NCBI GenBank assembly: GCA_020632015.1 | Contig: JACKGI010000004.1 | Coordinates: 1 to 59,852, forward strand | Length of the DNA stretch: 59,852 bases | Reading direction: 5' to 3' | DNA from: Candidatus Nomurabacteria bacterium | GTDB taxonomy: Bacteria > Patescibacteriota > Minisyncoccia > Phycocordibacterales > UBA918 | Part shown: piece after piece, positions 1 through 59,265 of the stretch | How the letters are laid out: each line of letters starts with the position of its first letter | Position numbering within the stretch: the first letter of the stretch is position 1 | Notes under the pieces: model-generated | The model's input: only the letters and a program-made list of their open reading frames with translations | Told to the model about the DNA's origin: nothing | Databases searched by the model: none | Made by a program: the position numbers and the translations under genes

Positions 1-808
1 ACCAGTCAGTTCTATACTGGCAAGGTTATTGGTCCAGACGGAGAATACATAGAGAGTAGTAGTCACGAAGCTTTGGTTGACGATGATACGTTCAATCAAG
101 TTCAAGCCCTGCTCGGCAAGAAAAAAGTCAGTGTTCACTACACCGAGAAACTTGACCACCCGATGCGTGGAATGGTTCGTTGTGCTTATTGCCAACGTGT
201 ATATACTCCGTATACAAAGAAAGGCATTTTGTACTTCAATTCTCGTTGCGTAAAAGGGTGCGAAAACACAATGAAGAACTGCAACTTCGATTTCATTTCA
301 GAGAAGGTGCGAGGATTACTGACCAACCTATATTTCACTGACGATGAATTGGCTGAACTTGATGCTCGAACCAGTACGGACATCTCATTGTTGGAAGAAA
401 AGAGAAATAAAGAGTTTGAGCAGATTGAACGCAAGAAGAAACGTGTTCGTGAGCAGTTGGCATATCTACGAACCAACCGACTTTCATTGCTAACTTCTGG
501 TGCATATTCACCTGAAAGTATTGTTGCAGAACAAAATAACCTTGATGCTGAATTGGAAGCATTACAAGATGGCGAGCAAGCATCTGACGTTGCAATGAAG
601 GAATTGATGAAAGATGTAGTGACTCTTTCAGAACTCATAAAAAACACTGTACCCATTTACGATTTTGCAAATCCACACGAAAAAGAGAAAATCGTACGTG
701 TGATTTTTTCAGAACTTTTTATTTCACAAAATACGTTGGAATATAAAGTCAAAAAGGGCTTTGAGCCCTTCATTGACCGCATTTCTGCTATTTGTGATCC
801 TACGGGGA
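1..808 (+). mobile_element. right end of a second, upstream integrative element (tandem to the element at 794..5863)
   Basis: A recombinase paralog terminates at a copy of the same att core that bounds the downstream element. The remainder lies outside the window. Confidence 0.45.
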
Positions 809-831
809 GCGATTTGGAACCGTATTGTTAA
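1..831 (+). CDS. large serine recombinase, C-terminal portion (5' end outside the window)
   Basis: Frame 1 is open from base 1. The product is collinear with the C-terminal half of the complete recombinase at 4352..5887 (FYTGKVIG vs LYAGIVKK, HEALV vs HEPIV, Cys-rich zinc-ribbon CAYCQRVY...C.KGC, coiled-coil, GFEPF vs GFGTA tail). The last codons cross a 15-bp copy of the tRNA-Glu 3' end. Confidence 0.75.
   Translation, partial: TSQFYTGKVIGPDGEYIESSSHEALVDDDTFNQVQALLGKKKVSVHYTEKLDHPMRGMVRCAYCQRVYTPYTKKGILYFNSRCVKGCENTMKNCNFDFISEKVRGLLTNLYFTDDELAELDARTSTDISLLEEKRNKEFEQIERKKKRVREQLAYLRTNRLSLLTSGAYSPESIVAEQNNLDAELEALQDGEQASDVAMKELMKDVVTLSELIKNTVPIYDFANPHEKEKIVRVIFSELFISQNTLEYKVKKGFEPFIDRISAICDPTGSDLEPYC
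794..808. repeat. 15-bp direct repeat GTGATCCTACGGGGA (att core, copy 1)
   Basis: Identical to 5849..5863, which is the acceptor/T-stem 3' strand of tRNA-Glu. Flanking bases are partly similar. Confidence 0.8.
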
Positions 832-876
832 ACAAGTACACACAGTAAATTTTTAATAAGATGGTAGAATCATTAC

Positions 877-1455
877 ATGAATGGTGATGAAGATTTTTTA
901 TATGCAAAACATGATATATCTACTTCAAACGGAGAGTTTGTAGGGGTTCATGACGTCGGATTATTAAAGAGTTCAGATGGCGATAGCTGTACAGTCTTTT
1001 TTATTACTGCCTGGAAGGATATTGTTGTCCCATGTTCATCGGTAGAGATATTTGATGAAACCAAAACAGGAGATGGGTTTTCAAAGAAGATTTGCAATGT
1101 TTGCCACAAGCTTAAAAATACAAGCGATTTTGAACCAAATCAGACTGGTGTTAATAATAGGGTCGTAAGGAGACCCTCATGTTCTTACTGTCGAAAACAT
1201 ATAGACGGAAAGAAGATGGATAAGTCTGATTGGAAAGAGTGGCAAAAAACAAAACCAAACCGAGTTCCTTTCGAATGTCCTATTTGTGGTAAAAGAACCA
1301 TTGCTGGTGTAACCAGTAAGGTCGTTTTAGAACATGATCATAAAAATGGTGAGATTAGAGGTTGGGTTTGTGATAGTTGTAATACAGGTCTGGGTAGATT
1401 TAAGGATGATGTCGGAATCCTTAACAGAGCAATTAGATTTATTAGTGGAAGCTAG
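877..1455 (+). CDS. HNH / endonuclease VII-type (beta-beta-alpha-Me) nuclease, putative type II restriction endonuclease
   Basis: C-terminal EHDHKNGEIRGWVCDSCNTGLG matches the EndoVII/HNH signature (DH..G..RG.LC..CN..LG). Two CxxC pairs (CNVCH, CSYC, CPIC) suggest zinc fingers. Convergent with and abutting a DNA methyltransferase. Confidence 0.7.
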   Translation: MNGDEDFLYAKHDISTSNGEFVGVHDVGLLKSSDGDSCTVFFITAWKDIVVPCSSVEIFDETKTGDGFSKKICNVCHKLKNTSDFEPNQTGVNNRVVRRPSCSYCRKHIDGKKMDKSDWKEWQKTKPNRVPFECPICGKRTIAGVTSKVVLEHDHKNGEIRGWVCDSCNTGLGRFKDDVGILNRAIRFISGS

Positions 1456-2315
1456 TCTTTGTGCTCGTGTAGACGTTTTTTAGCTATTTCAACGTATTCT
1501 TCAGAAATATCACAGCCAATGTAGTTTCTATTGTTCAACATAGCCATCTTACATGTTGTTCCCGATCCACACATTGGGTCAAATACAACATCTCCTTCTT
1601 CCGACCACGAGAGTATATGGTCTTCAGCAAGTTTCTCTGGGAAGATTGCGGGGTGTTCAAAAGCAATTCTATCGCTGGTTGATCCATGTAGTCCAACCGC
1701 ATATTCCCATATATTTGTTAAAGTTTTTTCTGGCTTGAGCTCTTTCTTAATTTTTTTATTTACACCATCTGCTCCTTTGTTATGTGGAAGTGGCTCAATA
1801 CCTTGTCTTACAGTTTTTGTTTTTAATGGATTAAAGGTTTTTGGTGATGACTTTGTGAAAACAAACATGAACTCATAACAATTTGTGTATGCGTTTGATC
1901 GCATAAATGGTGTGTTCTTTTTCTTGTATATCATCACATCATGCACATTGAATCCGACCTGTTGAAAAAGCAGTGCTTGCTTAAAGCTGGTTAAGCTTTT
2001 GTTACCATTTTTAATTTTGTCTCCAACAACCCAAATAACAACCCCACCTTTTTTCATGACTGCGTAAAGGCTTTTTGCCATCCCTTCAAAATCAAAATGA
2101 TAACCCTTGTAATCTCTTAATTCATCGTACGGCGGTGATGTCACAACAAGGTCTATAGATCCTTCAGGGAAACTTTTCATTACCTCTACTGCATTACCAA
2201 CAACAAAATCATTAATTGGTAACTTTTCCTCTTGTCCTATCAATTTTTCTTGCTTTGGTTGGCTTACGACCTTGTTTTTGTTAGTTGTTTGATGCATTGC
2301 CTGTGATTTTATCAT
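1452..2315 (-). CDS. DNA methyltransferase, beta-class N4-cytosine or N6-adenine
   Basis: Motif IV TSPPY lies near the N-terminus and motif I FDPMCGSGTT near the C-terminus (beta-class order). Confidence 0.85.
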   Translation of the reverse strand: MIKSQAMHQTTNKNKVVSQPKQEKLIGQEEKLPINDFVVGNAVEVMKSFPEGSIDLVVTSPPYDELRDYKGYHFDFEGMAKSLYAVMKKGGVVIWVVGDKIKNGNKSLTSFKQALLFQQVGFNVHDVMIYKKKNTPFMRSNAYTNCYEFMFVFTKSSPKTFNPLKTKTVRQGIEPLPHNKGADGVNKKIKKELKPEKTLTNIWEYAVGLHGSTSDRIAFEHPAIFPEKLAEDHILSWSEEGDVVFDPMCGSGTTCKMAMLNNRNYIGCDISEEYVEIAKKRLHEHKD

Positions 2316-2330
2316 ATATACATTTTTTGT

Positions 2331-2436
2331 CGACGCAGCAGTTGCACTTGACTAAAGCCGCCCGCACTAGTCGCGCCCGCCTGCGGAGCTTCGCGCCGCG
2401 AGCTTGTGAGCGGTGTGAAGGGCGGGGTAAGGGCGG
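2331..2436. other. GC-rich structured intergenic segment inside the element
   Basis: A local run of GC-rich sequence in an AT-rich context. AGCCGCCC (about 2364) can pair with GGGCGGCT (about 2426), enclosing GAGCTTCGCG/CGCGAGCTT quasi-palindromes. Confidence 0.4.
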
Positions 2437-3054
2437 CTAAGAAAACCAAAGACCCAATTTGTTCCTGATTCTTGTAACCTCTATGCCAACATCAAAGTGT
2501 GCCTCTCTAGCAATCTTTGCTTGCAAGGCAATTATGTCCTTCGTCAGTTTTTGGCCATTGTCTTCTTTAATATTTTTCATGTCATCTTTGAAGTCACCAA
2601 TCATAAGTAGTTGCATACGTGTAAATGGTTTTAGTGCAACAGACTTTTCAGTTATTTCCTTTAATACTCCTTTGTGGCCCAGATATCTATACCAAGCCTC
2701 TTCACTGACCTTTTCCTTGTTTTCTTCCCATTTCTCCATAAAATTATCCATAGTTGCTTCTTTGCCAATAATTGGCATAGAGGCAATGGGGTTTGTAATT
2801 TCGTTAACACAATTTCTCATGGAAAGCAGCACGCCTAGAATTTCTTTTGCTTCCCTTGATCTAAGTTCATGACCGAACGTTTTAGATGTCCACCAAGCCG
2901 TAAAAATAGTTACTAAAGTTACTGCCATAGCTTGAAAACTACTTAATATAACTTGTGTTTTTTCAGGTGCGAAAAAAATACCTGAGATAATGGCTCCCAG
3001 AAGTAGTCCAATGACAAACATTAGAACATCTGCTTTTGTAATCAACTTTTTCAT
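2437..3054 (-). CDS. hypothetical membrane protein (two N-terminal TM helices plus soluble domain), element cargo
   Basis: 205-aa ORF with hydrophobic segments VLMFVIGLLLGAIISGIFF and AMAVTLVTIFTAWW. No motif recognised. Confidence 0.6.
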   Translation of the reverse strand: MKKLITKADVLMFVIGLLLGAIISGIFFAPEKTQVILSSFQAMAVTLVTIFTAWWTSKTFGHELRSREAKEILGVLLSMRNCVNEITNPIASMPIIGKEATMDNFMEKWEENKEKVSEEAWYRYLGHKGVLKEITEKSVALKPFTRMQLLMIGDFKDDMKNIKEDNGQKLTKDIIALQAKIAREAHFDVGIEVTRIRNKLGLWFS

Positions 3055-3297
3055 TTCCTATTTAAAATACAACATGATTTATAATTTTCTTCTTTACAAC
3101 ATACTTCTTTTCTTTTGTCCCGTAACTTTTTCAGCTAAACAAGAGTTTTAAAGCACAAGCTCTAAAGCAAGCTTAAATATAAAAAAGCTAACTGAGAGCT
3201 AAAAAGGATAAAAGAAGTCTAGAATCCTTAAGCTTTAAAATAGTTTAAGGAGTTTTTTGTGCCCGCATAACAGCGGGCTTTTCTTGTGCTTCAAAAC

Positions 3298-3365
3298 GGG
3301 GTTCCAGTCCCTGCACCAGCGGTTTCGCGGGGCAGGGATGGACCCCGGAGGGGGACTTGATTAAT
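3298..3365 (+). promoter_or_regulatory. candidate double-strand origin (GC-rich imperfect hairpin plus ACTTGATTAAT nick-like motif)
   Basis: GGGGTTCCAGTCCCTGC (3298-3314) pairs imperfectly with GCAGGGATGGACCCC (3332-3346). ACTTGATTAAT at 3355-3365 resembles the CTTGATA nick core of phiX174/pC194-type origins. It lies 33 nt upstream of the Rep start. Confidence 0.5.
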
Positions 3366-3397
3366 CCCTCACTTAACTAATTAACAACTTAAATTAA

Positions 3398-4183
3398 ATG
3401 TCATACATCAAAGTAACTACATACGGCGATTATGTCGAAATAAATGAATACGAACATGATCTTATACGAAACCATGACGGACGCGCAGGCCGGCGGTCGT
3501 CAGCTATTAGCAATGATAATTTGGGAACTAGCAGAGAGGATTCACTTCAGACCGGGGACAGTGAAGAAAAAGTGGGGCGCCGATCCGATAACGCGTGGCG
3601 CGCTAGCATGGCTTTCCGAAGGCTTGTTTCAGCTAACCTCGGGAGAGGATCTGCACCACCTCTACTGGCTACACTTACCTACGGGAGCAATTTCACCGAC
3701 CTTAGTGCGGCGTATAAACACTACTCAGCTTTTGCGCAATCTCTCAGACGCAAGTTCGGGCATGACTTTAAGTACCTATGCGTCCCAGAATTTCAAGAAC
3801 GTGGCGCCGTACATTTCCACGCTTTCCTCTGGGGGTTACCCGAAGAACTTTTTCTTCTGGAGAGGGAAAATCGTACCGTGGCACAAATCTGGAGCCATGG
3901 TTTTGTCGATCTCAAAAGAACAGATGGAGCAGGGGCGTTGGCTGGGTACCTAGCTAAATATCTAACCAAAGCCTATGAAGACCCGCGTCTCAAGAATCAA
4001 AAAGCATACACCGCTTCTCGCAATATCATTCGTCCTGAAGTGTTTACGGGGAACTTCAGTGCCGATCGCATTCTCTTTGAATTAGGGGTTGATTCTGAGC
4101 CTGAAGTCTCACGCGAATACAACACAAAGTGGTTTGGTCGTGCCACCTATCGCAAATACAAGATTAACCATGATGAGCCTTAA
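3398..4183 (+). CDS. rolling-circle replication initiator (HUH endonuclease, two-tyrosine type)
   Basis: Motif 1 LLATLTY, motif 2 VHFHAFLW (HUH), motif 3 YLAKYLTK (Y-x3-Y, compare phiX gpA YVAKYVNK). Confidence 0.8.
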   Translation: MSYIKVTTYGDYVEINEYEHDLIRNHDGRAGRRSSAISNDNLGTSREDSLQTGDSEEKVGRRSDNAWRASMAFRRLVSANLGRGSAPPLLATLTYGSNFTDLSAAYKHYSAFAQSLRRKFGHDFKYLCVPEFQERGAVHFHAFLWGLPEELFLLERENRTVAQIWSHGFVDLKRTDGAGALAGYLAKYLTKAYEDPRLKNQKAYTASRNIIRPEVFTGNFSADRILFELGVDSEPEVSREYNTKWFGRATYRKYKINHDEP

Positions 4184-4349
4184 GCATCTTAGAGAAATAG
4201 AACCTAAACTCGCTAATGCTTCTGATGAAGAAGTGGCTCTTATTCGTGAAAAAATCTATGAAGTGGCGCACCTTGCATACGATTCTTATAAAGAAGACCG
4301 TGATTCCAAATTCGCCGTGGGGTCAGCGGAAGTGGACGATGAAAAATAG
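4170..4349 (+). CDS. small hypothetical protein (59 aa) between Rep and recombinase
   Basis: ATGATG start overlaps the Rep stop, and the ORF ends 2 nt before the recombinase start. Tight operon-like packing; no motif recognised. Confidence 0.4.
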   Translation: MMSLKHLREIEPKLANASDEEVALIREKIYEVAHLAYDSYKEDRDSKFAVGSAEVDDEK

Positions 4350-4351
4350 CT

Positions 4352-5887
4352 ATGTATGATACTGATATGACAGGAAAGCGAGGGATTATCTATTGTCGCG
4401 TGTCTTCGCTCGAACAGGTGGATGGAACTAGTCTTGAATCACAGGAGCGGATTTGTCGTGAATATGCCGAACGTGAAGGTATAGAAGTTGCTGATGTGTT
4501 TGTTGATCGAGGCGAATCTGCTAAAACTGCCGATCGTCCTCAGTTTCTTAAAGCAATTTCATTTTGTGGTCAAAAGAAAAACCAGATTGATTTTTTCATA
4601 GTATATAAATTAGACCGCTTTTCTCGTAGTCAGACCGATCACTTCGCTGTTCAAAACAGTCTTAATAAATATGGTGTCACTATTCGCTCTGCTACTGAAC
4701 CGGTTGATGAATCACCAATCGGAAAATTCTTAATGGGCACATTGTCTGCTTCAGCTGAATTTGATAACAGTATCCGCTCTGAACGTAGCTCGACTGGTAT
4801 GCGAGAACGCCTTAAGCAAGGAATCTGGGTCTGGCCGGCTCCTACAGGTTATCAACGTCTAGAAAAAGGCGGCGTTATGGTGCCTGATAACGACGCTCAG
4901 TATGTCCGCCTCGCTTTCAATGAGTATGTGAAAGGGACTCATACATACAAAACTCTAGCCACTCTCTTATTTGAAAAAGGTCTACGCTCAAAATCTGGCA
5001 AAAAGATTGAGTTTCAAACTATTCAAAAAATGATCCATAACCCTCTGTATGCTGGTATCGTGAAAAAGGATGAATGGGGCATCGAAGTCAAAGGACAACA
5101 TGAACCTATTGTCACTGAGTCACTATTTTATAAATGCCAAGGTGCCGGACGGTCACATAAGGGAACAAAGAAACAAGAAAAGAATCCTAATTTTCCACTT
5201 CGCAGACTGGTTTCTTGCGAGTGGTGTGATGATCCATTAACAGGTAGCTTTTCGACTGGACGTGGTGGCAAGAAGCACGGTTATTATCATCATCACAAAC
5301 AAGGTTGTCCGCACGCTAAATCAATCAAAAAGAAAGACCTTGAAGAATCATTTGTCTCTTTTCTAGAGGAGATAAATCCTACCTTTGAATTTGCCAACGC
5401 TTTCAAAGAGGCGTGTATGGAAATTTATCGAGAAGATAACACCAATGCTGAAAAACAAAACGAGACGGTTAGACAGCAGGTCGCTAGCCTGTATGAGAAA
5501 AAGAAAGCCATCTTTAACAATTTTGAAGAGGGTATCTATACCAAGACTGACTTCTTAGAACGAAAACGAGAAGTGGAACGACAGCTATATGCCGCTCAAA
5601 GTAACTTGATTGAAGTGCGGGGTGGCGAATTAGACTTTGAAGCCGCTCTTGATTACTGCATAAGTTTCATTATTGATACTCCTGATACTTGGAAGCGATT
5701 GGTAAAACAGCCTGAAAAAAGGCTACGGTTCCAAAATTTTATTTTCGAGGGCAGTATTCCTTATACACAAAACAACGGTTTTGGAACCGCTGTTTTGTCG
5801 CCTATTTACTCACTATCTGAGGAGTATAAACGTGATAAATCTTCGTTGGTGATCCTACGGGGAATCGAACCCCGATTTCCAGGATGA
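4352..5887 (+). CDS. large serine recombinase (integrase)
   Basis: N-terminal resolvase catalytic motif IIYCRVSSLEQ, DRFSR, a recombinase domain, zinc-ribbon CEWCDDPL...C, and a coiled-coil tail. The 3' end overlaps tRNA-Glu on the opposite strand. Confidence 0.9.
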   Translation: MYDTDMTGKRGIIYCRVSSLEQVDGTSLESQERICREYAEREGIEVADVFVDRGESAKTADRPQFLKAISFCGQKKNQIDFFIVYKLDRFSRSQTDHFAVQNSLNKYGVTIRSATEPVDESPIGKFLMGTLSASAEFDNSIRSERSSTGMRERLKQGIWVWPAPTGYQRLEKGGVMVPDNDAQYVRLAFNEYVKGTHTYKTLATLLFEKGLRSKSGKKIEFQTIQKMIHNPLYAGIVKKDEWGIEVKGQHEPIVTESLFYKCQGAGRSHKGTKKQEKNPNFPLRRLVSCEWCDDPLTGSFSTGRGGKKHGYYHHHKQGCPHAKSIKKKDLEESFVSFLEEINPTFEFANAFKEACMEIYREDNTNAEKQNETVRQQVASLYEKKKAIFNNFEEGIYTKTDFLERKREVERQLYAAQSNLIEVRGGELDFEAALDYCISFIIDTPDTWKRLVKQPEKRLRFQNFIFEGSIPYTQNNGFGTAVLSPIYSLSEEYKRDKSSLVILRGIEPRFPG

Positions 5888-5921
5888 AAACCTGGCGTCC
5901 TGACCATTAGACGATAGGACC
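5847..5921 (-). tRNA. tRNA-Glu (anticodon UUC), CCA encoded
   Basis: Manual cloverleaf: GGTCCTA/TAGGATC acceptor, anticodon stem CCAGG/CCTGG with loop TTTTCAT, T-arm CGGGG-TTCGATT-CCCCG, ACCA end. Confidence 0.93.
5849..5863. repeat. 15-bp direct repeat GTGATCCTACGGGGA (att core, copy 2, inside tRNA-Glu)
   Basis: Identical to 794..808. Confidence 0.8.
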
Positions 5922-21666: not shown

Positions 21667-22973
21667 AACTCCGACCCTTTGAATTAGCCTTAGTTATAGT
21701 TTTTATCGGTCTAGCTCTTTTGGCATTAGTGATGCTGGCAACCGCTGATCCAAAAAAATCCAAATCTGATGACGGACAGACAGTTGTCGGCTATGTAACT
21801 ATCTGGGGTACGTTACCAGCTGAATCTATAAACAGCATTCTGTCTGAAATATCTAAGGAAAACGAAGCCTACAAAGATGTCATCTACAAATACTACAATC
21901 CAGACGACTTCGACAACGTACTAGTTAATGCGCTAGCAGACGGAACTGGTCCCGATTTGGTGCTGATTTCCCATGAGAAATTAGTAGAAACCCGTAAACG
22001 AATACAACCCGTTTCTTATGAATCTTTCCCGATTAGAAATATCCGAGATTCATATTTAGACGGAGCACAAATCTTTGCTCTTGATGACGGCCTGTATGGT
22101 TATCCTATCGCTGTGGATCCAATAATGATGTACTGGAACAGAGATATCTTTGCGAACAAGGATTTGTTGTCTGCTCCTGCTACTTGGGAAGATTTAGTAA
22201 ACTCAGTATTTCCAAAGTTAATTGAGCGGGATTCTGACAGAACGATTAGACAAAGTGTGGTGGCGATGGGTGAGTATGACAACGTCCGTAATGCTTTTGG
22301 AATACTATCGACTCTTTTAATTCAGGGGGGTTCAGAGAGGGTGACGATCGATAAGGTCGGGCGATACCAAGTAAAGCTACAGATGTCAGAAACAGGAAAG
22401 GGTGACCCCTTGCGTGCCGCAGCAGATTTCTACACTCGCTTCAGTAAACCTAGCAACGCCCTATATTCATGGAATCGTTCATTTAAGGACGACAGACTAG
22501 AATTCGTATCAGAGAATTTGGCTATTTACTTTGGTTACGGAAGTGAAGGTAGACAGTTAGAAAAAATAAATCCAAACTTCAATTTCGATATAGCAGAAGT
22601 TCCGCAGGGGGCAGAAGCAACAGTGAGAAGAACCTACGGTAAGTTCTACGCCCTGTCGCTCCTTAAGACATCAGATAACAAGGTCGGCGCCAGCGCAGCT
22701 ATGACCAAGTTGGCTGGCGCCACAGTGGCTACCGAAATCGCCATACGAAATAACCTAGTTCCAGCTTATCGTAACGCTGTTTTACAAGGTAGTAACGATA
22801 CTTTTGGTCGACTAAATTATAAATCAGCGGCAGTGGCGCTAGGGTGGCTTAATCCTGATTTGTCCGCTTCTAACCAAATATTCTCAACAATGACACAAGA
22901 CATTAATGAAAACAGACGAGACTTAGACAGCGCTGTCTTAGATGCTTCAAAGAGATTGGGTAATGAATATTAA
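21663..22973 (+). CDS. extracellular solute-binding protein (ABC family 1-like), membrane anchored
   Basis: N-terminal TM anchor and SBP-like blocks GTGPDLVLISHEKL and YGYPIAVDPIMMYWNRDIF. Confidence 0.7.
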   Translation: MKLRPFELALVIVFIGLALLALVMLATADPKKSKSDDGQTVVGYVTIWGTLPAESINSILSEISKENEAYKDVIYKYYNPDDFDNVLVNALADGTGPDLVLISHEKLVETRKRIQPVSYESFPIRNIRDSYLDGAQIFALDDGLYGYPIAVDPIMMYWNRDIFANKDLLSAPATWEDLVNSVFPKLIERDSDRTIRQSVVAMGEYDNVRNAFGILSTLLIQGGSERVTIDKVGRYQVKLQMSETGKGDPLRAAADFYTRFSKPSNALYSWNRSFKDDRLEFVSENLAIYFGYGSEGRQLEKINPNFNFDIAEVPQGAEATVRRTYGKFYALSLLKTSDNKVGASAAMTKLAGATVATEIAIRNNLVPAYRNAVLQGSNDTFGRLNYKSAAVALGWLNPDLSASNQIFSTMTQDINENRRDLDSAVLDASKRLGNEY

Positions 22974-22977
22974 TGTT

Positions 22978-23610
22978 ATGAAAAAAATACTACTTTATAC
23001 TTTTGGTTTCCTAACTATCGCTCTGGCACAAGCATATCCATCGACGGCGCTAGCTGAACCATGTGGTACTGGTTCAACTGATCCCCAGTGTGAGTGCACT
23101 TCTCCAAGGGTACCCATGCAATCCACTGTGACAGGGATTTATACTTGCCAACTTCCTGGTATAGCAGAGACTAATAATTGTACAGGATCACAATCAATAA
23201 ATAGTTGTTCGTGTGGTGCAGGGTACACTAAAGCGTGTGACGCTTTAGGTAACAACTGCACTTGTAATGGTAATCCTTCTAACTCCCAAAGTCCATTTGA
23301 GGCTGGAGAAGGAGCGGGACTAAAGGAAAATCCGGGGATAACTTTTAAGCTTACTAGTCCGATTAACGTCACTACTTTCGAAGGCTTACTGTCATCTCTC
23401 CTAAACATTTTCTTGGTTATTGCGACACCAATAATTGTGTTGTTTATAATCTACGCTGGTTTCCTATATGTAACAGCTCGAGGCAATGCAGAACAAACCA
23501 AGCAGGCTACAAAAGCCCTGACTTACGCTATCATCGGCGGAGTCATTTTGCTTGGTTCAGTGGCGATTGCCGAAATTGTTAAAAACGTAGTTGAGGCTTT
23601 TAGAGCCTAA
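22978..23610 (+). CDS. VirB2/TrbC-like pilin-family membrane protein, paralog 1 (Cys-rich N-terminal extension)
   Basis: Signal peptide MKKILLYTFGFLTIALAQA, a Cys-rich region, then the family core IATPIIVLFIIYAGFLYVTARGNAEQTKQATKALTYAIIGGVILLGSVAI. Confidence 0.7.
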   Translation: MKKILLYTFGFLTIALAQAYPSTALAEPCGTGSTDPQCECTSPRVPMQSTVTGIYTCQLPGIAETNNCTGSQSINSCSCGAGYTKACDALGNNCTCNGNPSNSQSPFEAGEGAGLKENPGITFKLTSPINVTTFEGLLSSLLNIFLVIATPIIVLFIIYAGFLYVTARGNAEQTKQATKALTYAIIGGVILLGSVAIAEIVKNVVEAFRA

Positions 23611-24223: not shown

Positions 24224-24601
24224 ATGAAAAAGATTTTATCATCTCTACTTCTGATTCCAGCAGTATTTCTACCACTTGTCTCATCAGCCCAAATTGCAAA
24301 TTCTTCTGATGCTGGCCCGTTTCAAGCATTGCTAGTCAATATCGTTACTTTTATTAATGATATTTTAATTCCGTTTATTATCGCAATCGGATTCCTATTC
24401 TTTGTTTGGGGGATGTTCCTTTACTTTATTTTAGGTGGAGCGGATGATGAAAAGAAGCTAAAAGGAAGGAGTTTAATGATTCACGCTACAATTGGTTTTG
24501 TAGTAATCATCATTTTCTTCGGAGTTGTAAACTTACTTACTTCTAGTACAGGGCTAGAAGGAGAGGCGCTCAGGAATATTCCGGCAGTAGAGATTCCGTA
24601 G
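24224..24601 (+). CDS. VirB2/TrbC-like pilin-family membrane protein, paralog 4
   Basis: Signal peptide, then LIPFIIAIGFLFFVWGMFLYFILGGADDEKKLKGRSLMIHATIGFVVIIIFFGVVN. Confidence 0.65.
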   Translation: MKKILSSLLLIPAVFLPLVSSAQIANSSDAGPFQALLVNIVTFINDILIPFIIAIGFLFFVWGMFLYFILGGADDEKKLKGRSLMIHATIGFVVIIIFFGVVNLLTSSTGLEGEALRNIPAVEIP

Positions 24602-24693
24602 TAAACAGTGAATAACTAATTTGTCTACAGTAATCTATGGCCTATAATTATAGGTAAACGTTATAACGTTATAAATTTAAATAGAAAATACGT

Positions 24694-25089
24694 ATGAAAA
24701 GAATTGGGTACATGATTGGAGGCTCAAGTTCAATCGCTCTTGCAGCACCATTGTTGGCTTTTGCACAGATTGCAGATCAAGCAAACGCAGGTGGTTTTGA
24801 GCAACTTTTGAGAAACATCCTTGAGTTTACAAATGGAGTTTTGATTCCATTTATTATCGGTATCGGTTTCCTTGTTTTTGTATGGGGAATGTTCCGATAC
24901 TTCATCGCTGGTGGAGCAAATGACGAAGCAAAGGCAAGCGGAAAGAGTTTAATGATCTACGCAACTCTAGGGTTCGTATTGATTATTGTGTTCTGGGGAA
25001 TCATCAACCTTATCAGCGGCAGTCTATTTTCAGACAGCGACACTCTAGATCAAAACCTAGTACCAAAGGTAGACAACCTGCTCCCATAG
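24694..25089 (+). CDS. VirB2/TrbC-like pilin-family membrane protein, paralog 5
   Basis: LIPFIIGIGFLVFVWGMFRYFIAGGANDEAKASGKSLMIYATLGFVLIIVFWGIIN, close to paralog 4. Confidence 0.65.
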   Translation: MKRIGYMIGGSSSIALAAPLLAFAQIADQANAGGFEQLLRNILEFTNGVLIPFIIGIGFLVFVWGMFRYFIAGGANDEAKASGKSLMIYATLGFVLIIVFWGIINLISGSLFSDSDTLDQNLVPKVDNLLP

Positions 25090-28719: not shown

Positions 28720-28850
28720 GTGCGCAGGAGAGGACTTGAACTCTACGAGTTCAGTACAGGTTGTCGTTATTTTGTTCACAAGCTCCAAAATAACTGGCAA
28801 CCTTTTCAAACCCTCACACAAAGTCTTCCAGACTTTGCTTCCTGAGCACA
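28720..28850 (-). repeat. tRNA-3'-end-linked hairpin module, copy 1 (downstream of tRNA-Leu-UAG)
   Basis: 28720..28741 is a perfect 22-nt copy of the tRNA 3' end (28879..28900). 28805..28815 is an inverted T-loop/T-stem copy. Long hairpin at 28759..28802. The interior is homologous to the module at 38595..38706. Confidence 0.6.
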
Positions 28851-28879
28851 CAAAAACCCACCAAAGTGGGTTTTCTTAG

Positions 28880-29125: not shown

Positions 29126-29322
29126 ATGTTTTGTGGGATGAGTTTACAATAATTTGTTACATAATACAAGGTTAATCTTGAGTCAAGTGGTTATATAAAA
29201 AAACCTGACAAACCTCTTGATTCAGTTAATGAACTCTTGAATATAAAATATAAATACATCTGTGGTGCAGTTCTATCGATCAAAAGTAAAAGCCGGAATT
29301 TATTTCCGGCTTTTACTTTTTG

Positions 29323-29408
29323 TGCCCGGGGCGGGAATTGAACCCGCACGCCGTTTAAAAGGCAAGGGATTTTAAGTCCCTCGTGTCTACCGATTCCACC
29401 ACCCGGGC
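29323..29408 (-). tRNA. tRNA-Leu (anticodon UAA)
   Basis: GCCCGGG acceptor, anticodon stem AGGGA/TCCCT with loop CTTAAAA, long variable arm, T-arm GCGGG-TTCAATT-CCCGC. Confidence 0.93.
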
Positions 29409-38594: not shown

Positions 38595-38706
38595 GTGCGC
38601 CGGGCAGGAATTTTGGTCATTACATGACCGGTACAGGTTGTCAGTATTTTTGTTCCTCTGTCACAAAATACTAGGCAACCTCTTCAAATCCAGTGACCAC
38701 TGTCAA
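38595..38706 (-). repeat. tRNA-3'-end-linked hairpin module, copy 2 (downstream of tRNA-Tyr)
   Basis: 38595..38609 is a 15-nt copy of the tRNA-Tyr 3' end (38746..38760). 38683..38691 is an inverted T-loop copy (TTCAAATCC). Long hairpin at 38636..38680, homologous to copy 1. Confidence 0.6.
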
Positions 38707-38746
38707 AACAAAAAACCAGACACAAGGTCTGGAATTTGTTTCGAAG

Positions 38747-39167: not shown

Positions 39168-40217
39168 ATGAAATATCTCCATCTTTTTGTTTTTTTATTT
39201 TTAGGCCTTTTAGTTTACATTTCTCCGGTAGAGGTTTTTGCTCAAGACCCAACAGGCTTGGTGCCTTGTGACGGCACAACAGAAAATCCATGTAATTCAT
39301 GCCAGTTAGTGGTGTTGGGAGAAAATATTTTGCAGTGGCTTATTGGTGTCATGCTGGTTATTTTTGCAATAATGGTTGCAATCTCTGGCTTTAACTTAGT
39401 TACTTCTGGAGGTAATCCACAAGCAAAAACAGAAGCAAAGAAGAAGCTAACCAATTCATTCGTTGCGATTGTTATTGTCTTGGCTGCTTGGTTGATTGTG
39501 GATACTCTGATGCGTTCGCTTCTGCTTGGCGGAGAAGGGCAGATTAATGGTCGTCCTTGGTCTACTTTAGAGTGTATTAATGCTACTGAGACAACTATGC
39601 CAAACAAAAATGAATTAAGTCCCACACTACAACAAGTTGAGGATCTGAAAGCGATGGGATGTCAGTTTAAGAATGGCAGAGAGGGGTGGTATTGTCCAAA
39701 TACTTCTTGCCGATATAGGGAGACTGAGGGTTGGTACAATTGTGCAGAAGGAGAAGTTCCTCCAGCTCCTCCTGAGCCAATAGCGGCTGCTGGTTTAGAA
39801 AATGCTTGTGGCGGTGGACCGTGTGTTCCTTTGGCTACAGTAGGCGTGCCATGTAAAGATCCAAACAGTTGTGCATTGGCACCTTCAACTCAGGAGAAGG
39901 TCGCCGCTTTCCATGCAGCTGCTGGTGTATCTGGAGCCAGAGTGACCGAAGCTATGCCTCCAACTCGAACACACAGTAACCCTTGTCATACAAATGGAAC
40001 TTGTATCGATTATGGTAAGGCTGGTGGTATGACTAATCAGGAGATAAAAGATGTTATTCAAGCTGCCGTAAACGCTGGTCTGTCTCCTAAGTACGAAGTC
40101 GGTACACAAGCTGAAGTTGATGTTTTGTTAGAAGCTGGTATTCCAGCTCAATATATCGAAAAGCCTTTAGGTAGCCATATAACGGCTCCACATTTTTCTA
40201 TTTATGATAATGGTTAA
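39168..40217 (+). CDS. VirB2/TrbC-like pilin-family N-terminal domain fused to a Cys-rich C-terminal domain (possible LAS/M15-like metallopeptidase)
   Basis: Signal peptide, then PCDGTTENPCNSCQLVVL...VMLVIFAIMVAISGFNLVTSGGNPQAKTEAKKKLTNSFVAIVIVLAAWLIV. The C-terminal HTNGTCID fits H-x2-G-x3-D (H-x6-D) of VanX/M15-type zinc sites, a weak match. Confidence 0.65.
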   Translation: MKYLHLFVFLFLGLLVYISPVEVFAQDPTGLVPCDGTTENPCNSCQLVVLGENILQWLIGVMLVIFAIMVAISGFNLVTSGGNPQAKTEAKKKLTNSFVAIVIVLAAWLIVDTLMRSLLLGGEGQINGRPWSTLECINATETTMPNKNELSPTLQQVEDLKAMGCQFKNGREGWYCPNTSCRYRETEGWYNCAEGEVPPAPPEPIAAAGLENACGGGPCVPLATVGVPCKDPNSCALAPSTQEKVAAFHAAAGVSGARVTEAMPPTRTHSNPCHTNGTCIDYGKAGGMTNQEIKDVIQAAVNAGLSPKYEVGTQAEVDVLLEAGIPAQYIEKPLGSHITAPHFSIYDNG

Positions 40218-40259
40218 ATAAACAAAGACTGGCGGTATGCCAGTCTTTGTTTATTTATG

Positions 40260-40330
40260 CGGGTCCACGAGGACTCGAACCTCGGCCGACGGTTTTGGAG
40301 ACCGTTGTTCTACCACTAAACTATAGACCC
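40260..40330 (-). tRNA. tRNA-Trp (anticodon CCA)
   Basis: GGGTCTA acceptor, anticodon stem ACGGT/ACCGT with loop CTCCAAA, T-arm CGAGG-TTCGAGT-CCTCG. Confidence 0.92.
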
Positions 40331-42016: not shown

Positions 42017-42120
42017 GGTGCCTCGAGAGGGAGTCGAAACTTACAGTTTCAGTACCCGTTTTGGATGGATTACTTCGTTCCTTATAATCCATCTCAAAAC
42101 AGCTTCGACTCCCTCAACCA
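42017..42120 (-). repeat. tRNA-3'-end-linked hairpin module, copy 3 (downstream of tRNA-Leu-CAA)
   Basis: 42017..42038 is a perfect 22-nt copy of the tRNA 3' end (42158..42179). 42104..42115 is a perfect 12-nt inverted copy of the T-loop/T-stem. Long hairpin at 42058..42100. Confidence 0.6.
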
Positions 42121-42159
42121 AAACAAAAACCAGACGCAAGGTCTGATTTCTTATTTCGG

Positions 42160-49029: not shown

Positions 49030-51645
49030 ATGCAGGGAAACTTAAACTCAAATACAGAGAACTACTTAACAAAGAATTCTATTGGTGTACCAGAATACAA
49101 ACCCAAGGATGAATTTTTTAAAGAAAAGGATTTTAGTGACAAAAAGCCATCTGGCTACAAGCGAGAAAAAGTCAGTGTGAATGATGCGCTTGAGGAATTG
49201 GAAGATGAGTCACCTCTTGAATTAAATGATTTCGATGACGGTTTGACCGATGAGGAGTTTAAGTTTTCTTTGGAGCGTGAGCTTGAGAAACAATTATCGG
49301 AAAATGATTCCTCTAGCGAAATGCCAAACGGACACTTTCAAGATGCGCTTAAAAATGCTCTGGAGAAAGAAAAAGTCGAGAATGAACCAAAGGAGAAAGA
49401 AACTCCAGAAGACAATACTGACGAGAACGAGAACGAGAACGAGAACGTGAACGAAGTTCTTGGTGGGGCTACAAATGACGAGACCGAGGTTGTGCCAGTA
49501 GAGGGGACCTTGGAAGGAGAGCTTGTATCTGCTGATATTGAATCACTGTCTGAACAAAGTCCTCAAAGTCCTGAGCGAGAAGAATACTTGCGTTTGAAAC
49601 AGGAGTTTAAACAAACTCAAAAAAAATACTTGGATGCCGTCGCTGAAGATTACACTACTCGTGATCATGTGAGTAAGCTTCTTGGTATCGGTCGTCATAA
49701 TATGAGTGACTCGACAAAAGAGGCTCACGATAGGTATTTGTCTGCTAATCGTGCTTTCTATGAATATTCACGTGACAGTGAAAGTTTTAGAGTAATAGCT
49801 GAAAGGGCTGAGCGCATGAATAGAGTAAACCATCATGATGCTGAGAGCTTTTCAATTGAACCTTCTTTGGTTGGCCGACATATACTTAATACGGCAGAGA
49901 AGCGTCTTAAACTACAGACCTCAAGGCTGATGCCAGAAAGATTGTCTCAGACACTAGGTCGTGTTTCTGGACTTATAAAAAATCATCCAAGAATTGCGAT
50001 TACTGCAGGAGTCGTGGCACTGGGAGTAGGCGGTGCCGTAGCAGGAGCAGGAGCTGTTGGCCTGTATGCAGGTAAGGTCGGACTAGGTTTTGCTACTAGA
50101 TATGGTGGTAGCATGATAGCCAACAAAACTTTGTTGCAAAATAAAGAAAGTAAACTGAAAGAAATAACTGACCAAGCTATAGGTGTTTTAGGTCAGATGG
50201 ACGAAGAAACTTTAGAGAGATATGAAGAGGAAATTTTACGTGCAAGTAATACTGTTCAAAAAACTAAAACCGGTATTAAAATAGCTTCTCGAATGGCTGG
50301 TATCGGTGTTGCTGGTGCGGCATTTTCTCCAGAAATTAATGATTTCCTTACAGACGCTCCAGACAATCTACCAACAGGAGACGGTGGGGCCGGATTAGGT
50401 TTGGTCCCTCCTGAAGCGCCCGTTAATCCGACCGACGTGATTCCGGAATCACCAGTTGTCCCAGAAGGGCAAAGTACAGAGTTGCCAGTACAGGAAAAAG
50501 CTCCACTTTCAGAAGTAGCAAAAGGTTGGGTTGAAAGTGAATCAATGCAAACTCCGTCATCAGTTGAGATGGAAATACTCCATGACGTAAAAGAGGGCGA
50601 TACTTTGTCAAAAGTTGTTTTTGATGAAGTCGAAAAAAGACTTACCGCGGGTTCTGCAAGCTTGCCAGATCGGGCAATGGGAAACGGTGGGCTAATGAGT
50701 TTCATGTTGGAAAAGTTTCCCGAATTTAGTAATGGGACCGATATTTCTCCAACCTTAAGTCCAGAACAATGGCAAAGACTGGGTGTTAGTAGCGGTAATC
50801 CGCACATGATTTTTTATGACAATGATGTGGTAAATGTTGATGCAATAATAAAAATCATGGAGGGACAGCCGGTCAAAGAAGTGCTTGATAGTTTGCCTGA
50901 ATTAGAAAACGCAAGTCAGATAAGTGAGTCTACTAGTATGTTCTCTGGCAATGAAAATAATTTGACTTTAGAAGAAGCGGAAGAATTTGCTCCTAAATAT
51001 GCTTCTGATCAAATAATTGATGCTCCAAAGAGTTTTGAGGTTAGTTCGGAGCCAGAGCCTGTAATTCCTCTAGAAGCATCTCCTGAGCCAGAAGCTGTTC
51101 CTTCTGTTGAGTCTCCAGTCTCTAACGAAGTGATTCATGACTTGCCTACTTCGCAGGAATCTATTAATGAAAGCTCTGAGTATGGTCCGTACGAAACCAA
51201 TGATGTAGATAACGCATCTGTAGAATCTGCTTTTGAGGATTTTGATAATGCTGGATATTTTGTCGGAGAATACTATCAAGGCATGACTCATACCTTTGAC
51301 GGAGAGACAGGTTTACTGACTTTACTTAGTGATACGATTAAGGAGGGTCTGTATCAGAGAGGAGATCTGGCACCCCCGATGAGATTGGTTAGTGGTGACA
51401 ATGACTTCCTCGGAGATATAGATGGATATCTGTATCAAGGATTGCTCGAACTATCAGGAGGTGTAGCGAGTAGCGATTATGTGTTTTTCCCAGAAGGAAC
51501 GGTTTTGAATCCTGAAGACTGGGAGGTTTTTGGTATTACCAGCGATAACCCAATGAAGCCAAACGCTGGTGATGAGTTCGAGGTAGGAAAATTTTTAGAG
51601 TTTATGCTAGGTGGTAATAACGAAGTTTTGTTAAATAACGAGTAA
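49030..51645 (+). CDS. large acidic hypothetical protein with central Gly/Ala-rich TM segments
   Basis: 871 aa. NENENENV repeat, hydrophobic block ITAGVVALGVGGAVAGAGAVGLYAGKVGLGF, Pro/Glu-rich spacers. Confidence 0.6.
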   Translation: MQGNLNSNTENYLTKNSIGVPEYKPKDEFFKEKDFSDKKPSGYKREKVSVNDALEELEDESPLELNDFDDGLTDEEFKFSLERELEKQLSENDSSSEMPNGHFQDALKNALEKEKVENEPKEKETPEDNTDENENENENVNEVLGGATNDETEVVPVEGTLEGELVSADIESLSEQSPQSPEREEYLRLKQEFKQTQKKYLDAVAEDYTTRDHVSKLLGIGRHNMSDSTKEAHDRYLSANRAFYEYSRDSESFRVIAERAERMNRVNHHDAESFSIEPSLVGRHILNTAEKRLKLQTSRLMPERLSQTLGRVSGLIKNHPRIAITAGVVALGVGGAVAGAGAVGLYAGKVGLGFATRYGGSMIANKTLLQNKESKLKEITDQAIGVLGQMDEETLERYEEEILRASNTVQKTKTGIKIASRMAGIGVAGAAFSPEINDFLTDAPDNLPTGDGGAGLGLVPPEAPVNPTDVIPESPVVPEGQSTELPVQEKAPLSEVAKGWVESESMQTPSSVEMEILHDVKEGDTLSKVVFDEVEKRLTAGSASLPDRAMGNGGLMSFMLEKFPEFSNGTDISPTLSPEQWQRLGVSSGNPHMIFYDNDVVNVDAIIKIMEGQPVKEVLDSLPELENASQISESTSMFSGNENNLTLEEAEEFAPKYASDQIIDAPKSFEVSSEPEPVIPLEASPEPEAVPSVESPVSNEVIHDLPTSQESINESSEYGPYETNDVDNASVESAFEDFDNAGYFVGEYYQGMTHTFDGETGLLTLLSDTIKEGLYQRGDLAPPMRLVSGDNDFLGDIDGYLYQGLLELSGGVASSDYVFFPEGTVLNPEDWEVFGITSDNPMKPNAGDEFEVGKFLEFMLGGNNEVLLNNE

Positions 51646-58281: not shown

Positions 58282-58896
58282 ATGGAAATTTATTTGGTCA
58301 GACATGGTGAAACTGGTGGTAATGTTGCGAAAAGGCATCAGGCTGAACATACTTCTATTACCAAACTTGGAAGAGAGCAGGCTAAACAGGCAGCGCTGAA
58401 GATTAAAGAAATCAACCCGACTCACTTATTAACCAGCAATCTTGTTAGGGCGGTAGAGACAGCGGGTATTATTGGTGAGGTTTGCGGTATGGTGCCGGAA
58501 ACAACTGGAAACTTCATCGAGCTAGCAAGACCTAATCACATCTATGGACGACATCATCACAGTATTCAATCCCTTTGGTACTACGCCTTGTGGTACTTCG
58601 GGAGAGATACTGGAGAAAGTGACGGGGGAGAGTCGTATCTTTCCTTGAGACGAAGAATCCGGTTGGCCCAGAAAGAGATAGAGTCTTATCCATCTGATGC
58701 TAGGTTGGTTATAGTTTCACACTCAGTCTTCATAAATATGTTTGTTGCCCATCTTTGTAGCGGTAGACACCTGACACCTTGGCGAGCCATGAAGATATTT
58801 TCTGGAATGCTCAAAATGCCAAATGGTCACATAACAAAAATTTCTTTTAATCCAGAGGCTAGTAAAAAAACATGTGCTTGGGAGAAAGCTGAATAG
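58282..58896 (+). CDS. histidine phosphatase family protein
   Basis: LVRHGETGGN (RHG motif) and IVSHSVF (second catalytic His). Confidence 0.85.
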   Translation: MEIYLVRHGETGGNVAKRHQAEHTSITKLGREQAKQAALKIKEINPTHLLTSNLVRAVETAGIIGEVCGMVPETTGNFIELARPNHIYGRHHHSIQSLWYYALWYFGRDTGESDGGESYLSLRRRIRLAQKEIESYPSDARLVIVSHSVFINMFVAHLCSGRHLTPWRAMKIFSGMLKMPNGHITKISFNPEASKKTCAWEKAE

Positions 58897-58991
58897 GGAG
58901 CTTGAATCTTTGCTAGATTCTGGCAGTATAGTGCGACCAGGGAAGTGACGATTGGGGCGGAAGCAAAGCTTCCGCCCCAAAAAAGATTCTT

Positions 58992-59062
58992 TGCCGGATC
59001 GTCTAATGGTAGGACTGCGGTTTCTGGTACCGTCTATCGGGGTTCGAGTCCCTGTCCGGCAG
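58992..59062 (+). tRNA. tRNA-Gln (anticodon CUG)
   Basis: U1:A72 acceptor TGCCGGA/TCCGGCA, anticodon stem GCGGT/ACCGT with loop TTCTGGT, T-arm CGGGG-TTCGAGT-CCCTG. Confidence 0.9.
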
Positions 59063-59117
59063 CATAATTTAGTTTGACCCCAATGCGCATGCATTGGGGT
59101 CTTACTAAATTACCTGA

Positions 59118-59265
59118 CTACAGGGACTCGAACCGAGACGGCGCGAAGCCCGACGAAATGAAATGGAGTCGGAGCCGTCGAGTGGGGGTCGAGGGAGTGA
59201 GATATTTTGAGTTCAAAGAACGAAAAAAATATCCACGAGAGTGACCGATTCCCTGTCCGGCAGCA
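59118..59265 (+). repeat. tRNA-3'-end-linked hairpin module, copy 4 (downstream of tRNA-Gln)
   Basis: 59120..59134 is a perfect 15-nt inverted copy of the tRNA T-arm (59041..59055). Hairpin at 59137..59179. 59250..59265 is a 16-nt direct copy of the tRNA 3' end (59049..59064). Confidence 0.55.

Follow-up and report, generated by a model that had tools for sequence, protein, structure and literature searches.

Small structured modules at the 3′ ends of tRNA genes apparently form an undescribed superfamily across Patescibacteria

Integration of mobile DNA into tRNA genes is reportedly marked by a direct repeat that starts in the T loop or T stem and reaches the 3′ end of the tRNA. The insertion sequence IS608 is said to read its target by base pairing with a short internal guide that lies beside a hairpin, and changing this guide reportedly retargets the element. 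Nucleic-acid-guided insertion has proved useful as a tool in other systems. Patescibacteria (CPR) have tiny genomes with little non-coding DNA. Here we analyzed a stretch of 59,852 nt from Candidatus Nomurabacteria (GenBank assembly GCA_020632015.1, contig JACKGI010000004.1, positions 1 to 59,852 of the forward strand), referred to below as the window, in which four of the nine tRNA genes carry a module of 140–200 bp. Cassettes of this kind at tRNA 3′ ends across Patescibacteria apparently constitute an undescribed superfamily: a full-text literature search found no description of the modules, and a large survey of MITEs is silent on tRNA-linked or CPR elements.

The module behind tRNA-Gln, named copy 4, consists of the following parts.

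58992–59062, plus strand: intact tRNA-Gln(CTG), target or host of the module (ARAGORN; Rfam RF00005, 52.6 bits)
59049–59064, plus strand: DR1, first copy of the 16-nt repeat TCCCTGTCCGGCAGCA (sequence; empty sites hold one copy)
59065–59265, plus strand: whole 201-nt insertion, a type B module (absent from GCA_020632115.1 and ERZ28655789)
59065–59112, plus strand: left-arm palindromic hairpin with 22-nt arms and loop GCAT, without a U-tract (inverted-repeat scan)
59113–59134, plus strand: internal complement ("anti") (sequence)
59137–59179, plus strand: GC-rich two-tier hairpin with internal motif GCGAAGCC (sequence; covariation)
59180–59200, plus strand: conserved junction GAGTGGGGGTCGAGGGAGTGA (nearly invariant in type B alignment A4)
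59201–59233, plus strand: AU-rich hairpin GATATTTT..AAAATATC with apical GAG..CGAA loop (covaries, helix 4)
59233–59252, plus strand: conserved right box CCACGAGAGTGACCGATTCC (exact 20-mer in 37 metagenome loci and in L013)
59250–59265, plus strand: DR2, second copy of TCCCTGTCCGGCAGCA, followed by native flank (sequence; empty-site alignment)

The original prediction, made from the letters of the window, had placed a tRNA-Gln at 58992–59062, and both ARAGORN and Rfam recovered it there. The two repeats described in that prediction are exact: ACAGGGACTCGAACC at 59120–59134 is the perfect 15-nt reverse complement of the T arm at 59041–59055, and 59250–59265 copies the tRNA 3′ end (59049–59064) over 16 nt, or over 20 nt with one mismatch. 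DR1 covers the last base of the T loop, the 3′ strands of the T stem and the acceptor stem, the discriminator and two further nucleotides, while the stretch preceding the perfect complement (59113–59119) has degenerate complementarity to the acceptor 3′ strand. The predicted two-tier hairpin at 59137–59179 is also present, with an inner stem CCGAC..GTCGG and an outer stem GACGGC..GCCGTC (helix 2), which covaries, five of its six pairs being changed on both sides among 21 relatives. The module had been estimated at about 185 nt, whereas the insertion measures 201 nt, its frame of 59065–59265 being arbitrary within the 16-nt repeat. The hairpin 3′ of the tRNA, read at first as a terminator, is real and larger than had been described (59065–59112; arms 59065–59086 and 59091–59112, 91% complementary), but it lacks a U-tract and is therefore not called by the terminator scan around copy 4. 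In the sequence, the 3′ part of the tRNA combines with the palindrome and the complement into a single long, imperfect inverted repeat, and the 201 nt of the insertion contain no ORF.

The frequency of such repeats by chance was assessed with 4000 random 72-mers of the window, for which the 300 nt that follow were searched for repeats of the last 30 nt. Nine of these segments had a direct repeat of at least 14 nt and three had an inverted repeat of at least 15 nt, while a direct repeat of at least 14 nt together with an inverted repeat of at least 9 nt occurred in four of the 4000. Three of the nine window tRNAs have both, and a fourth (Leu-tag) does so if G-T wobble pairs are allowed. The repeat pattern of copy 4 is far beyond chance, and the expectation that random segments would show the combination much more rarely than tRNA genes was borne out.

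Comparison with closely related strains revealed a precise 201-bp presence/absence polymorphism at tRNA-Gln, the site being empty in two independent assemblies of near-identical strains (GCA_020632115.1, contig JACKGD010000002.1, L001/L131; and ENA metagenome contig ERZ28655789, L002). The empty allele retains one copy of the 16-nt repeat between near-identical flanks, and its tRNA-Gln is intact and identical in sequence; the protein encoded just upstream, His_Phos_1 (58282–58896), recurs unchanged on other public contigs. Over 18.8 kb, 20 substitutions and no gaps separate the window from GCA_020632115.1 (99.9% identity), and across the roughly 20 kb that were compared, indels are confined to the tRNA-Gln module and a reciprocal 303-bp insertion, which consists of two tandem modules behind tRNA-Trp in GCA_020632115.1. 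The tRNA-Trp of the window (40259–40330) has no module, and the occupied allele was independently confirmed in a third assembly. Immediately downstream of the tRNA-Gln module, the divergence between the window and its sister rises from 0.1% to 2%, which looks as if the flank had moved together with the module. These observations also bear on the suspicion that the tRNA-Gln repeats are a chance coincidence or an assembly artefact. The repeats are indeed short, and nothing else speaks for that explanation, which is scarcely credible in view of the random-segment counts, of occupied and empty alleles that are each found in independent assemblies, and of the recurrence of the modules, both families taken together, in over 100 loci.

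The other modules of the window, and the tandem pair of the sister genome, are as follows.

28720–28878, minus strand: copy 1, type A, behind tRNA-Leu(TAG), 22-nt direct repeat (119.9 bits)
38595–38745, minus strand: copy 2, type A, behind tRNA-Tyr, 15–16-nt direct repeat (95.7 bits)
42017–42157, minus strand: copy 3, type A′, behind tRNA-Leu(CAA), 22-nt direct repeat (62.2 bits)
L131 922–1250, minus strand: tandem pair behind tRNA-Trp, type A with CCTATAC, then type A′ (sister-genome comparison)

The sister genome has copy 1 as well. A covariance model was built from 62 type A units, with copies 1 and 2 in the training alignment and copy 3 outside it. Its E-values were 3e-34 for copy 1, 7e-27 for copy 2 and 1e-16 for copy 3, so copies 1–3 are statistically homologous. 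The same model did not detect copy 4, in which it gave only a 33-nt partial match (E = 2.9). Since the model finds copy 3, on which it was not trained, and misses copy 4, the latter is not detectably homologous to copies 1–3, and what links it to them is architecture. The claim that the interior of copy 4 is different thus holds for the module as seen by the model and fails for the AU-rich two-tier hairpin with its apical GAG...CGAA loop, which alone in copy 4 is reached by the type A model and is the one piece common to copy 4 and types A/A′.

The plan of copies 1–3 begins with a terminator, continues with a complement of the T loop and the T-stem 3′ strand and with a two-tier hairpin, P2, and ends with GTAC, a 6–7-bp hairpin with a GTA loop, P3, and a copy of the tRNA, which extends from T54 to one or two nucleotides past the discriminator. 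Scanning 185,579 species genomes for the pattern GGTTGCC-N28-38-GACAACCTGTAC returned at least 118 loci. Among the matches listed, at least about 70 have the full architecture, nearly all of them labelled Patescibacteria, with two in MAGs that carry no taxonomic label; the remaining matches listed are chance occurrences in coding DNA of other phyla. The lineages with type A include Saccharibacteria, Kaiserbacteria, Paceibacteria/Parcubacteria, Nomurabacteria and Minisyncoccia. In at least 44 modules a same-strand tRNA ends 49–112 nt upstream of the P2 core, and these 44, among the matches listed, cover at least 18 anticodons. The modal exact repeat is 21–22 nt long, from T54 to C74, starting at G|TTCGA of the T loop, while a second class of about 15 nt comprises the 3′ strands of the T stem and the acceptor stem. 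A mirror arrangement upstream of the tRNA was seen in a minority of loci (L018, L025, L034, L057, L059, L086 and L116), where a duplicated, decaying tRNA 5′ fragment ends exactly at G53. After it come the HP1-P2-P3 core, a short copy of the T loop that pairs with its own complement, a TATAAT-like box and a complete tRNA (Arg-TCT/CCT or Gln).

The relatives of copy 4 were collected by searching metagenomes with the conserved 20-mer CCACGAGAGTGACCGATTCC, which returned 37 loci; the 20-mer also occurs in L013. In nearly all of these loci with enough upstream sequence, the plan of copy 4 is found directly 3′ of a tRNA: the tRNA end is followed by a palindromic hairpin, a contiguous complement ending in ..TCGAACC, a GC hairpin with the conserved motif CGAAGYC, then GAGTGGGGGTCGAG.GAGTGAG, an AU hairpin, CCACGAGAGTGACCGATTCC and the copy of the tRNA 3′ end. 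Copy 4 carries every one of these defining elements. The idea that copy 4 is a further instance of one architecture, and that the architecture rather than a particular sequence is what recurs, is therefore upheld by the type B plan in the 37 metagenome loci. The host tRNAs of type B include Ala(GGC), Arg, Gly, Glu, Lys and Gln(TTG). Wherever a type B locus has its tRNA in view, a similar palindromic hairpin lies at the left-arm position, and the anti element (..GGGGAATCGAACC) tracks each tRNA. The closest case described here, L169 from another metagenome, lies behind tRNA-Gln(TTG), is 80% identical to copy 4 over the entire unit and retains the left hairpin with compensatory changes. A further type, "C", was noticed after type B units (L161 4150–4290; L166 3995–4130), and its complement and end copy match each other and not the local tRNA-Ala.

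Modules also differ in number and kind between relatives. The close relative HK-STAS-PATE-28 (L081, 655–1080) has three perfectly identical tandem 142-nt type A units at tRNA-Leu(TAA), a triplet that we read as a recent amplification, while tRNA-Leu(TAA) of the window (29322–29408) has no module and is followed directly by a terminator. Tandem arrays are common and occur as A′-A, B-A, A-B, B-B and A-A, and, depending on the lineage, the orthologous tRNA-Gln locus beside dnaX is empty or contains a unit of type A, of the mirror type or of type B. Units behind tRNA-Tyr, Leu-CAA, Leu-TAA and Arg-TCT have a common left arm, GAAATAA..CAGACCTTGYGTCTGG..TTTTGG, and each has its own matched complement and end copy; arm and core thus recur behind different tRNAs with only the end-specific segments exchanged. 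In the hybrid unit L148, the complement fits the local tRNA and the end copy belongs to another tRNA. Apart from the modules, an additional segment of about 790 bp lies just 5′ of the tRNA-Cys/Leu cluster in the sister genome GCA_020428855.1 (L124 4577–5239) and encodes a 220-aa ORF of no known family.

Covariation supports the predicted folds of both families. In type A, 90.9% of cells form standard pairs, compared with 76.8% after shuffling and at most 50% when the partners are slid, and double-sided changes number 249 against 81 in shuffled alignments. The corresponding values for type B are 87.9% against 74.4% for paired cells and 93 against 32 for double-sided changes, and the helix formed by anti and DR2 (helix 1) covaries among the type B relatives. 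The outer P2 stem (GGTTGCC..GACAACCTGTAC) and the 20-mer are invariant because the loci were selected on them. The ratio of G-U to A-C is 22:7 in the inner stem of P2 and 8:2 in P3, and this excess of about three to four to one identifies the tRNA-sense strand as the one that folds. At its apex, P2 reads UGA-[C-GNRA-G or GCGAAGC]-GAA, a motif typical of RNA, yet also stable in ssDNA.

These structural data raise the question of whether the modules are primarily functional structured RNAs, made within or just after the tRNA transcript and acting in processing or quality control, as a decoy or as a regulator. The internal complement would then pair with the T arm and acceptor 3′ strand of the tRNA, the duplicated tRNA end would provide the closing strand, and the differences between strains would reflect secondary gain and loss. 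Sense-strand covariation with its G-U excess, the apical loops and the invariant junction nucleotides agree with such a role, as does the complement itself, which matches the real tRNA in 41 of the 44 type A modules, also when the copy downstream is a decayed one. In addition, many type A units have only a 14–18-nt linker (ACGAACGAAGTGAG) after the tRNA and no terminator before the module, and are therefore transcribed with the tRNA. In type B and in many type A units, however, a strong hairpin or a canonical terminator stands between the tRNA and the core, and a promoter scan around copy 4 found none for the module. The same tRNA-Gln works without a module in the sister strains, different types occupy its orthologous locus across lineages, and neither an identical tandem triplication nor heterologous arrays would be expected of a dosage-sensitive RNA. 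Alternatively, templated correction within the long palindrome may maintain the persistent match between complement and tRNA in the absence of selection. We therefore regard a primary function as RNA as possible, if somewhat doubtful; if it were correct, the modules would be a large new class of RNA tied to tRNA biology in a poorly understood lineage.

The reading that we prefer, and to which we give about an even chance, is that the modules are small, non-coding, non-autonomous mobile cassettes specialized for the 3′ ends of tRNA genes. The observed facts fit cassettes that can be gained, lost and multiplied at these sites. In favour are the precise empty sites, the indels between sister genomes, the more divergent flank, the identical triplet at tRNA-Leu(TAA), the recurrence of both plans beside tRNAs, the sense-strand covariation, the tracking of the real tRNA by the complement, the common left arm with re-matched ends and the hybrid unit L148. 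A unit would comprise a left hairpin or terminator, a complement of the tRNA 3′ end, a conserved multi-hairpin core and a copy of the tRNA 3′ end, and would be joined immediately 3′ of the tRNA, 1–3 nt after the discriminator, so that the tRNA stays intact and gains a new hairpin or terminator. As a single strand, whether ssDNA or a read-through transcript, the complement would pair with the tRNA 3′ segment or with the downstream copy, and the latter pairing would close the conserved core. The folded, target-matched structure might be the substrate recognized by a putative trans-acting recombinase or transposase, with the internal complement as the specificity determinant. The units are bounded by two direct copies of the last 16–21 nt of the tRNA, and recombination or strand transfer at these identical ends would excise the unit seamlessly, which would leave an empty site such as that of the sister genome; insertion would be possible behind any existing copy, and tandem arrays would result. 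Against mobility, loss alone, by slippage between the direct repeats, could yield the presence/absence pattern, and the proposal does not account for the matching of complement and end copy to a new tRNA. Moreover, the conserved unpaired nucleotides, the GNRA-like loops and the tandem G.A motifs resemble a functional RNA more than a DNA site bound by protein, and the many type A units without an intervening terminator are necessarily transcribed along with the tRNA.

A stronger form of the mobile-cassette proposal is a new programmable mobile element, in which the 10–24-nt complement would be a guide, cleavage or joining would occur at the end copy, recognized through that guide, and catalysis would come from a CPR enzyme or from a reverse-splicing-like ribozyme core. 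A change of guide would retarget such an element, which would explain how one core serves at least 18 tRNA identities. We consider this form unlikely. No ORF was found in any module, and it counts against the mobile-cassette reading itself that no recombinase, transposase or reverse transcriptase was found in or adjoining any of them. All-against-all clustering of 587 ORFs from 70 module loci, undertaken for a linked enzyme, returned only syntenic housekeeping genes, among them IF-2, ClpB, DnaX, MiaA and ParB. ORF annotation of the window yielded no transposase except the serine recombinase of a separate 5-kb element, and exact-match record look-ups for ClpB and the serine recombinase found none. 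There was likewise no sign of phages as carriers: in blastn searches of phage records only tRNA-Gln itself was matched, and the ten matches of the type A pattern in IMG/VR viral contigs were all coincidences within coding sequence.

That 5-kb element is relevant to a further explanation, in which the modules are neither units of mobility nor of function and are instead the decayed remnants, attL/attR scars plus arms, of larger integrase-borne elements. A direct repeat from the T loop or T stem to the tRNA 3′ end is the classical signature of integration into tRNA genes, and the serine-recombinase element at tRNA-Glu of the window has such a repeat. A scar, though, does not explain the internal complement, no module contains a remnant coding sequence, and perfectly identical tandem copies exist. 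A complete, bounded architecture with covarying helices is seen in 37 loci of type B and in at least about 70 units of type A from many genomes, and independent decay would not converge on one plan. We judge decayed remnants to be distinctly improbable. For the mobile-cassette reading, the 5-kb element counts in favour, as active integration in the genome of the window.

The element itself occupies about 5 kb at tRNA-Glu(TTC) (793–5921), between TCCCCGTAGGATCAC(C/A) at 5848–5863 and at 793–808, a 15–16-nt repeat of the same kind as those of the modules. It encodes a large serine recombinase (4352–5887), with the 3′ end overlapping tRNA-Glu in antisense, a rolling-circle replication initiator of the RepSA/G2P type (3398–4183), an N6/N4 DNA methylase (1452–2315) and a His-Me/EndoVII nuclease (877–1455). 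Two sister genomes have different DNA 3′ of the orthologous tRNA-Glu.

Several other features of the window and its relatives were recorded. Small insertions or hairpins of the form (G)AAGCAAAGCTT(C) recur in L057 and L025 (D loop of the tRNA 5′ fragment), in L116 (P3 loop) and at 58958–58982 of the window, and these hairpins, in tRNA fragments and beside tRNA-Gln, may be a further small repeat family. In L009 (about 4940–5330, module-oriented, reverse-complemented), just upstream of a module array, a tRNA-like gene is apparently interrupted by an insert of several hundred nucleotides, possibly a group I intron. An 871-aa ORF (49030–51645) without a Pfam match is exactly conserved in several assemblies. 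T4SS-pilin domains (PF18895) occur in several ORFs, near a repeat of small ORFs with a period of 476 nt (22942–23610 and 39168–40217; 24338–25008).

Some candidate identities were rejected. A retro-copy of a mature tRNA was dismissed on the grounds that copies and complements lack CCA. A tRNA-like substrate of RNase P/Z was rejected as the general case on several units, L021 and L063 among them, whose complement extends its pairing to the discriminator and position 74, so that a free 3′ tail is lacking. Box C/D-like guides, hammerhead and HDV-like ribozymes, T-boxes, retrons and group I/II introns did not fit when their consensus features were compared by eye, and had no support from Rfam.

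If the modules are mobile, they would be a major unrecognized source of strain variation and of assembly breaks at tRNA loci in CPR. Despite sparse non-coding DNA, almost half of the window tRNAs carry them, and they turn over between strains that are 99.9% identical. The re-matching of one core to many tRNAs could reveal nucleic-acid-guided insertion as a new principle of target recognition.

As for known systems, an Rfam 15 search of the whole window at gathering thresholds returned only the nine tRNAs, and an E-value search (E up to 10) with copies 4 and 1 gave only sub-threshold chance matches. Membership in any known analogue class is not established. Each class has a defining enzyme that is missing here, and the modules depart from the sequence criteria of MITEs and attC. 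Like a MITE or another non-autonomous element, the modules are small, non-coding, multi-copy and polymorphic between close strains. Their ends, TAATTTAG... and ...GACCGAT/DR, are nevertheless not mutually inverted, and in place of a duplication of fixed length there is a repeat of 15–26 nt that follows the tRNA, with the inverted partner being internal.

Integrative elements of tRNA genes and CIMEs have much in common with the modules, namely flanking direct repeats of the tRNA 3′ end with the tRNA left functional, strain-variable presence, and tandem "accretion" arrays that share att copies. At copy 4, the repeats at 59049–59064 and 59250–59265 likewise flank the insert beside an intact tRNA. 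The modules differ in having no integrase, neither within the 201 nt of copy 4 nor recurrently in the 70 loci, in measuring only 140–200 bp, in their covarying multi-hairpin core, in the internal reverse complement of att, and in the use of at least 18 tRNA identities by one family.

The guide-RNA insertion systems, comprising the IS110 bridge RNA, the IS1111 seekRNA, the IS605 omega RNA and the EBS/IBS pairing of group II introns, resemble the modules in being structured, non-coding and equipped with segments that match the flanking target. Bridge, seek and omega RNAs adjoin a gene for a recombinase, a nuclease or a reverse transcriptase, whereas the modules have no such gene; specifically, no DEDD recombinase gene as in IS110/IS1111 lies adjacent in the window or in the 70 loci. 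Unlike these systems, the modules carry both a sense and an antisense copy of one target segment and have no Rfam match.

The integron attC site and the CTX-phi attP site share with the modules the pairing of inverted segments of one strand, which rebuilds a duplex target site, as well as a structure conserved more than its sequence and the organization into cassette-like units and arrays. The target of the modules, in contrast, is the end of a tRNA gene, and the R-box consensus of attC is absent: compared by eye with R″/R′ boxes RYYYAAC / GTTRRRY, the T-loop sequence G|TTCGAGT and the complementary ACTCGAAC depart from the consensus in the first R/Y position.

Small derivatives of IS200/IS605, PATEs, and REP/REPIN sequences with RAYT are, like the modules, non-autonomous, free of ORFs, rich in hairpins and dependent on action on one strand, and the IS200/IS605 type also shares seamless excision and insertion 3′ of a recognized sequence. 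No Y1 HUH transposase was seen in the annotation of the roughly 60-kb window. Guides of the IS608 type are 4–5 nt long, compared with 10–24 nt for the complement of the modules, and the left and right cleavage sequences of IS608 differ, whereas both ends of a module share one sequence, which accounts for the direct repeat. By analogy, the closest mechanistic parallels to the modules would be the guide of IS608-type elements, folded ssDNA sites such as attC and CTX attP, and the accretion of CIMEs.
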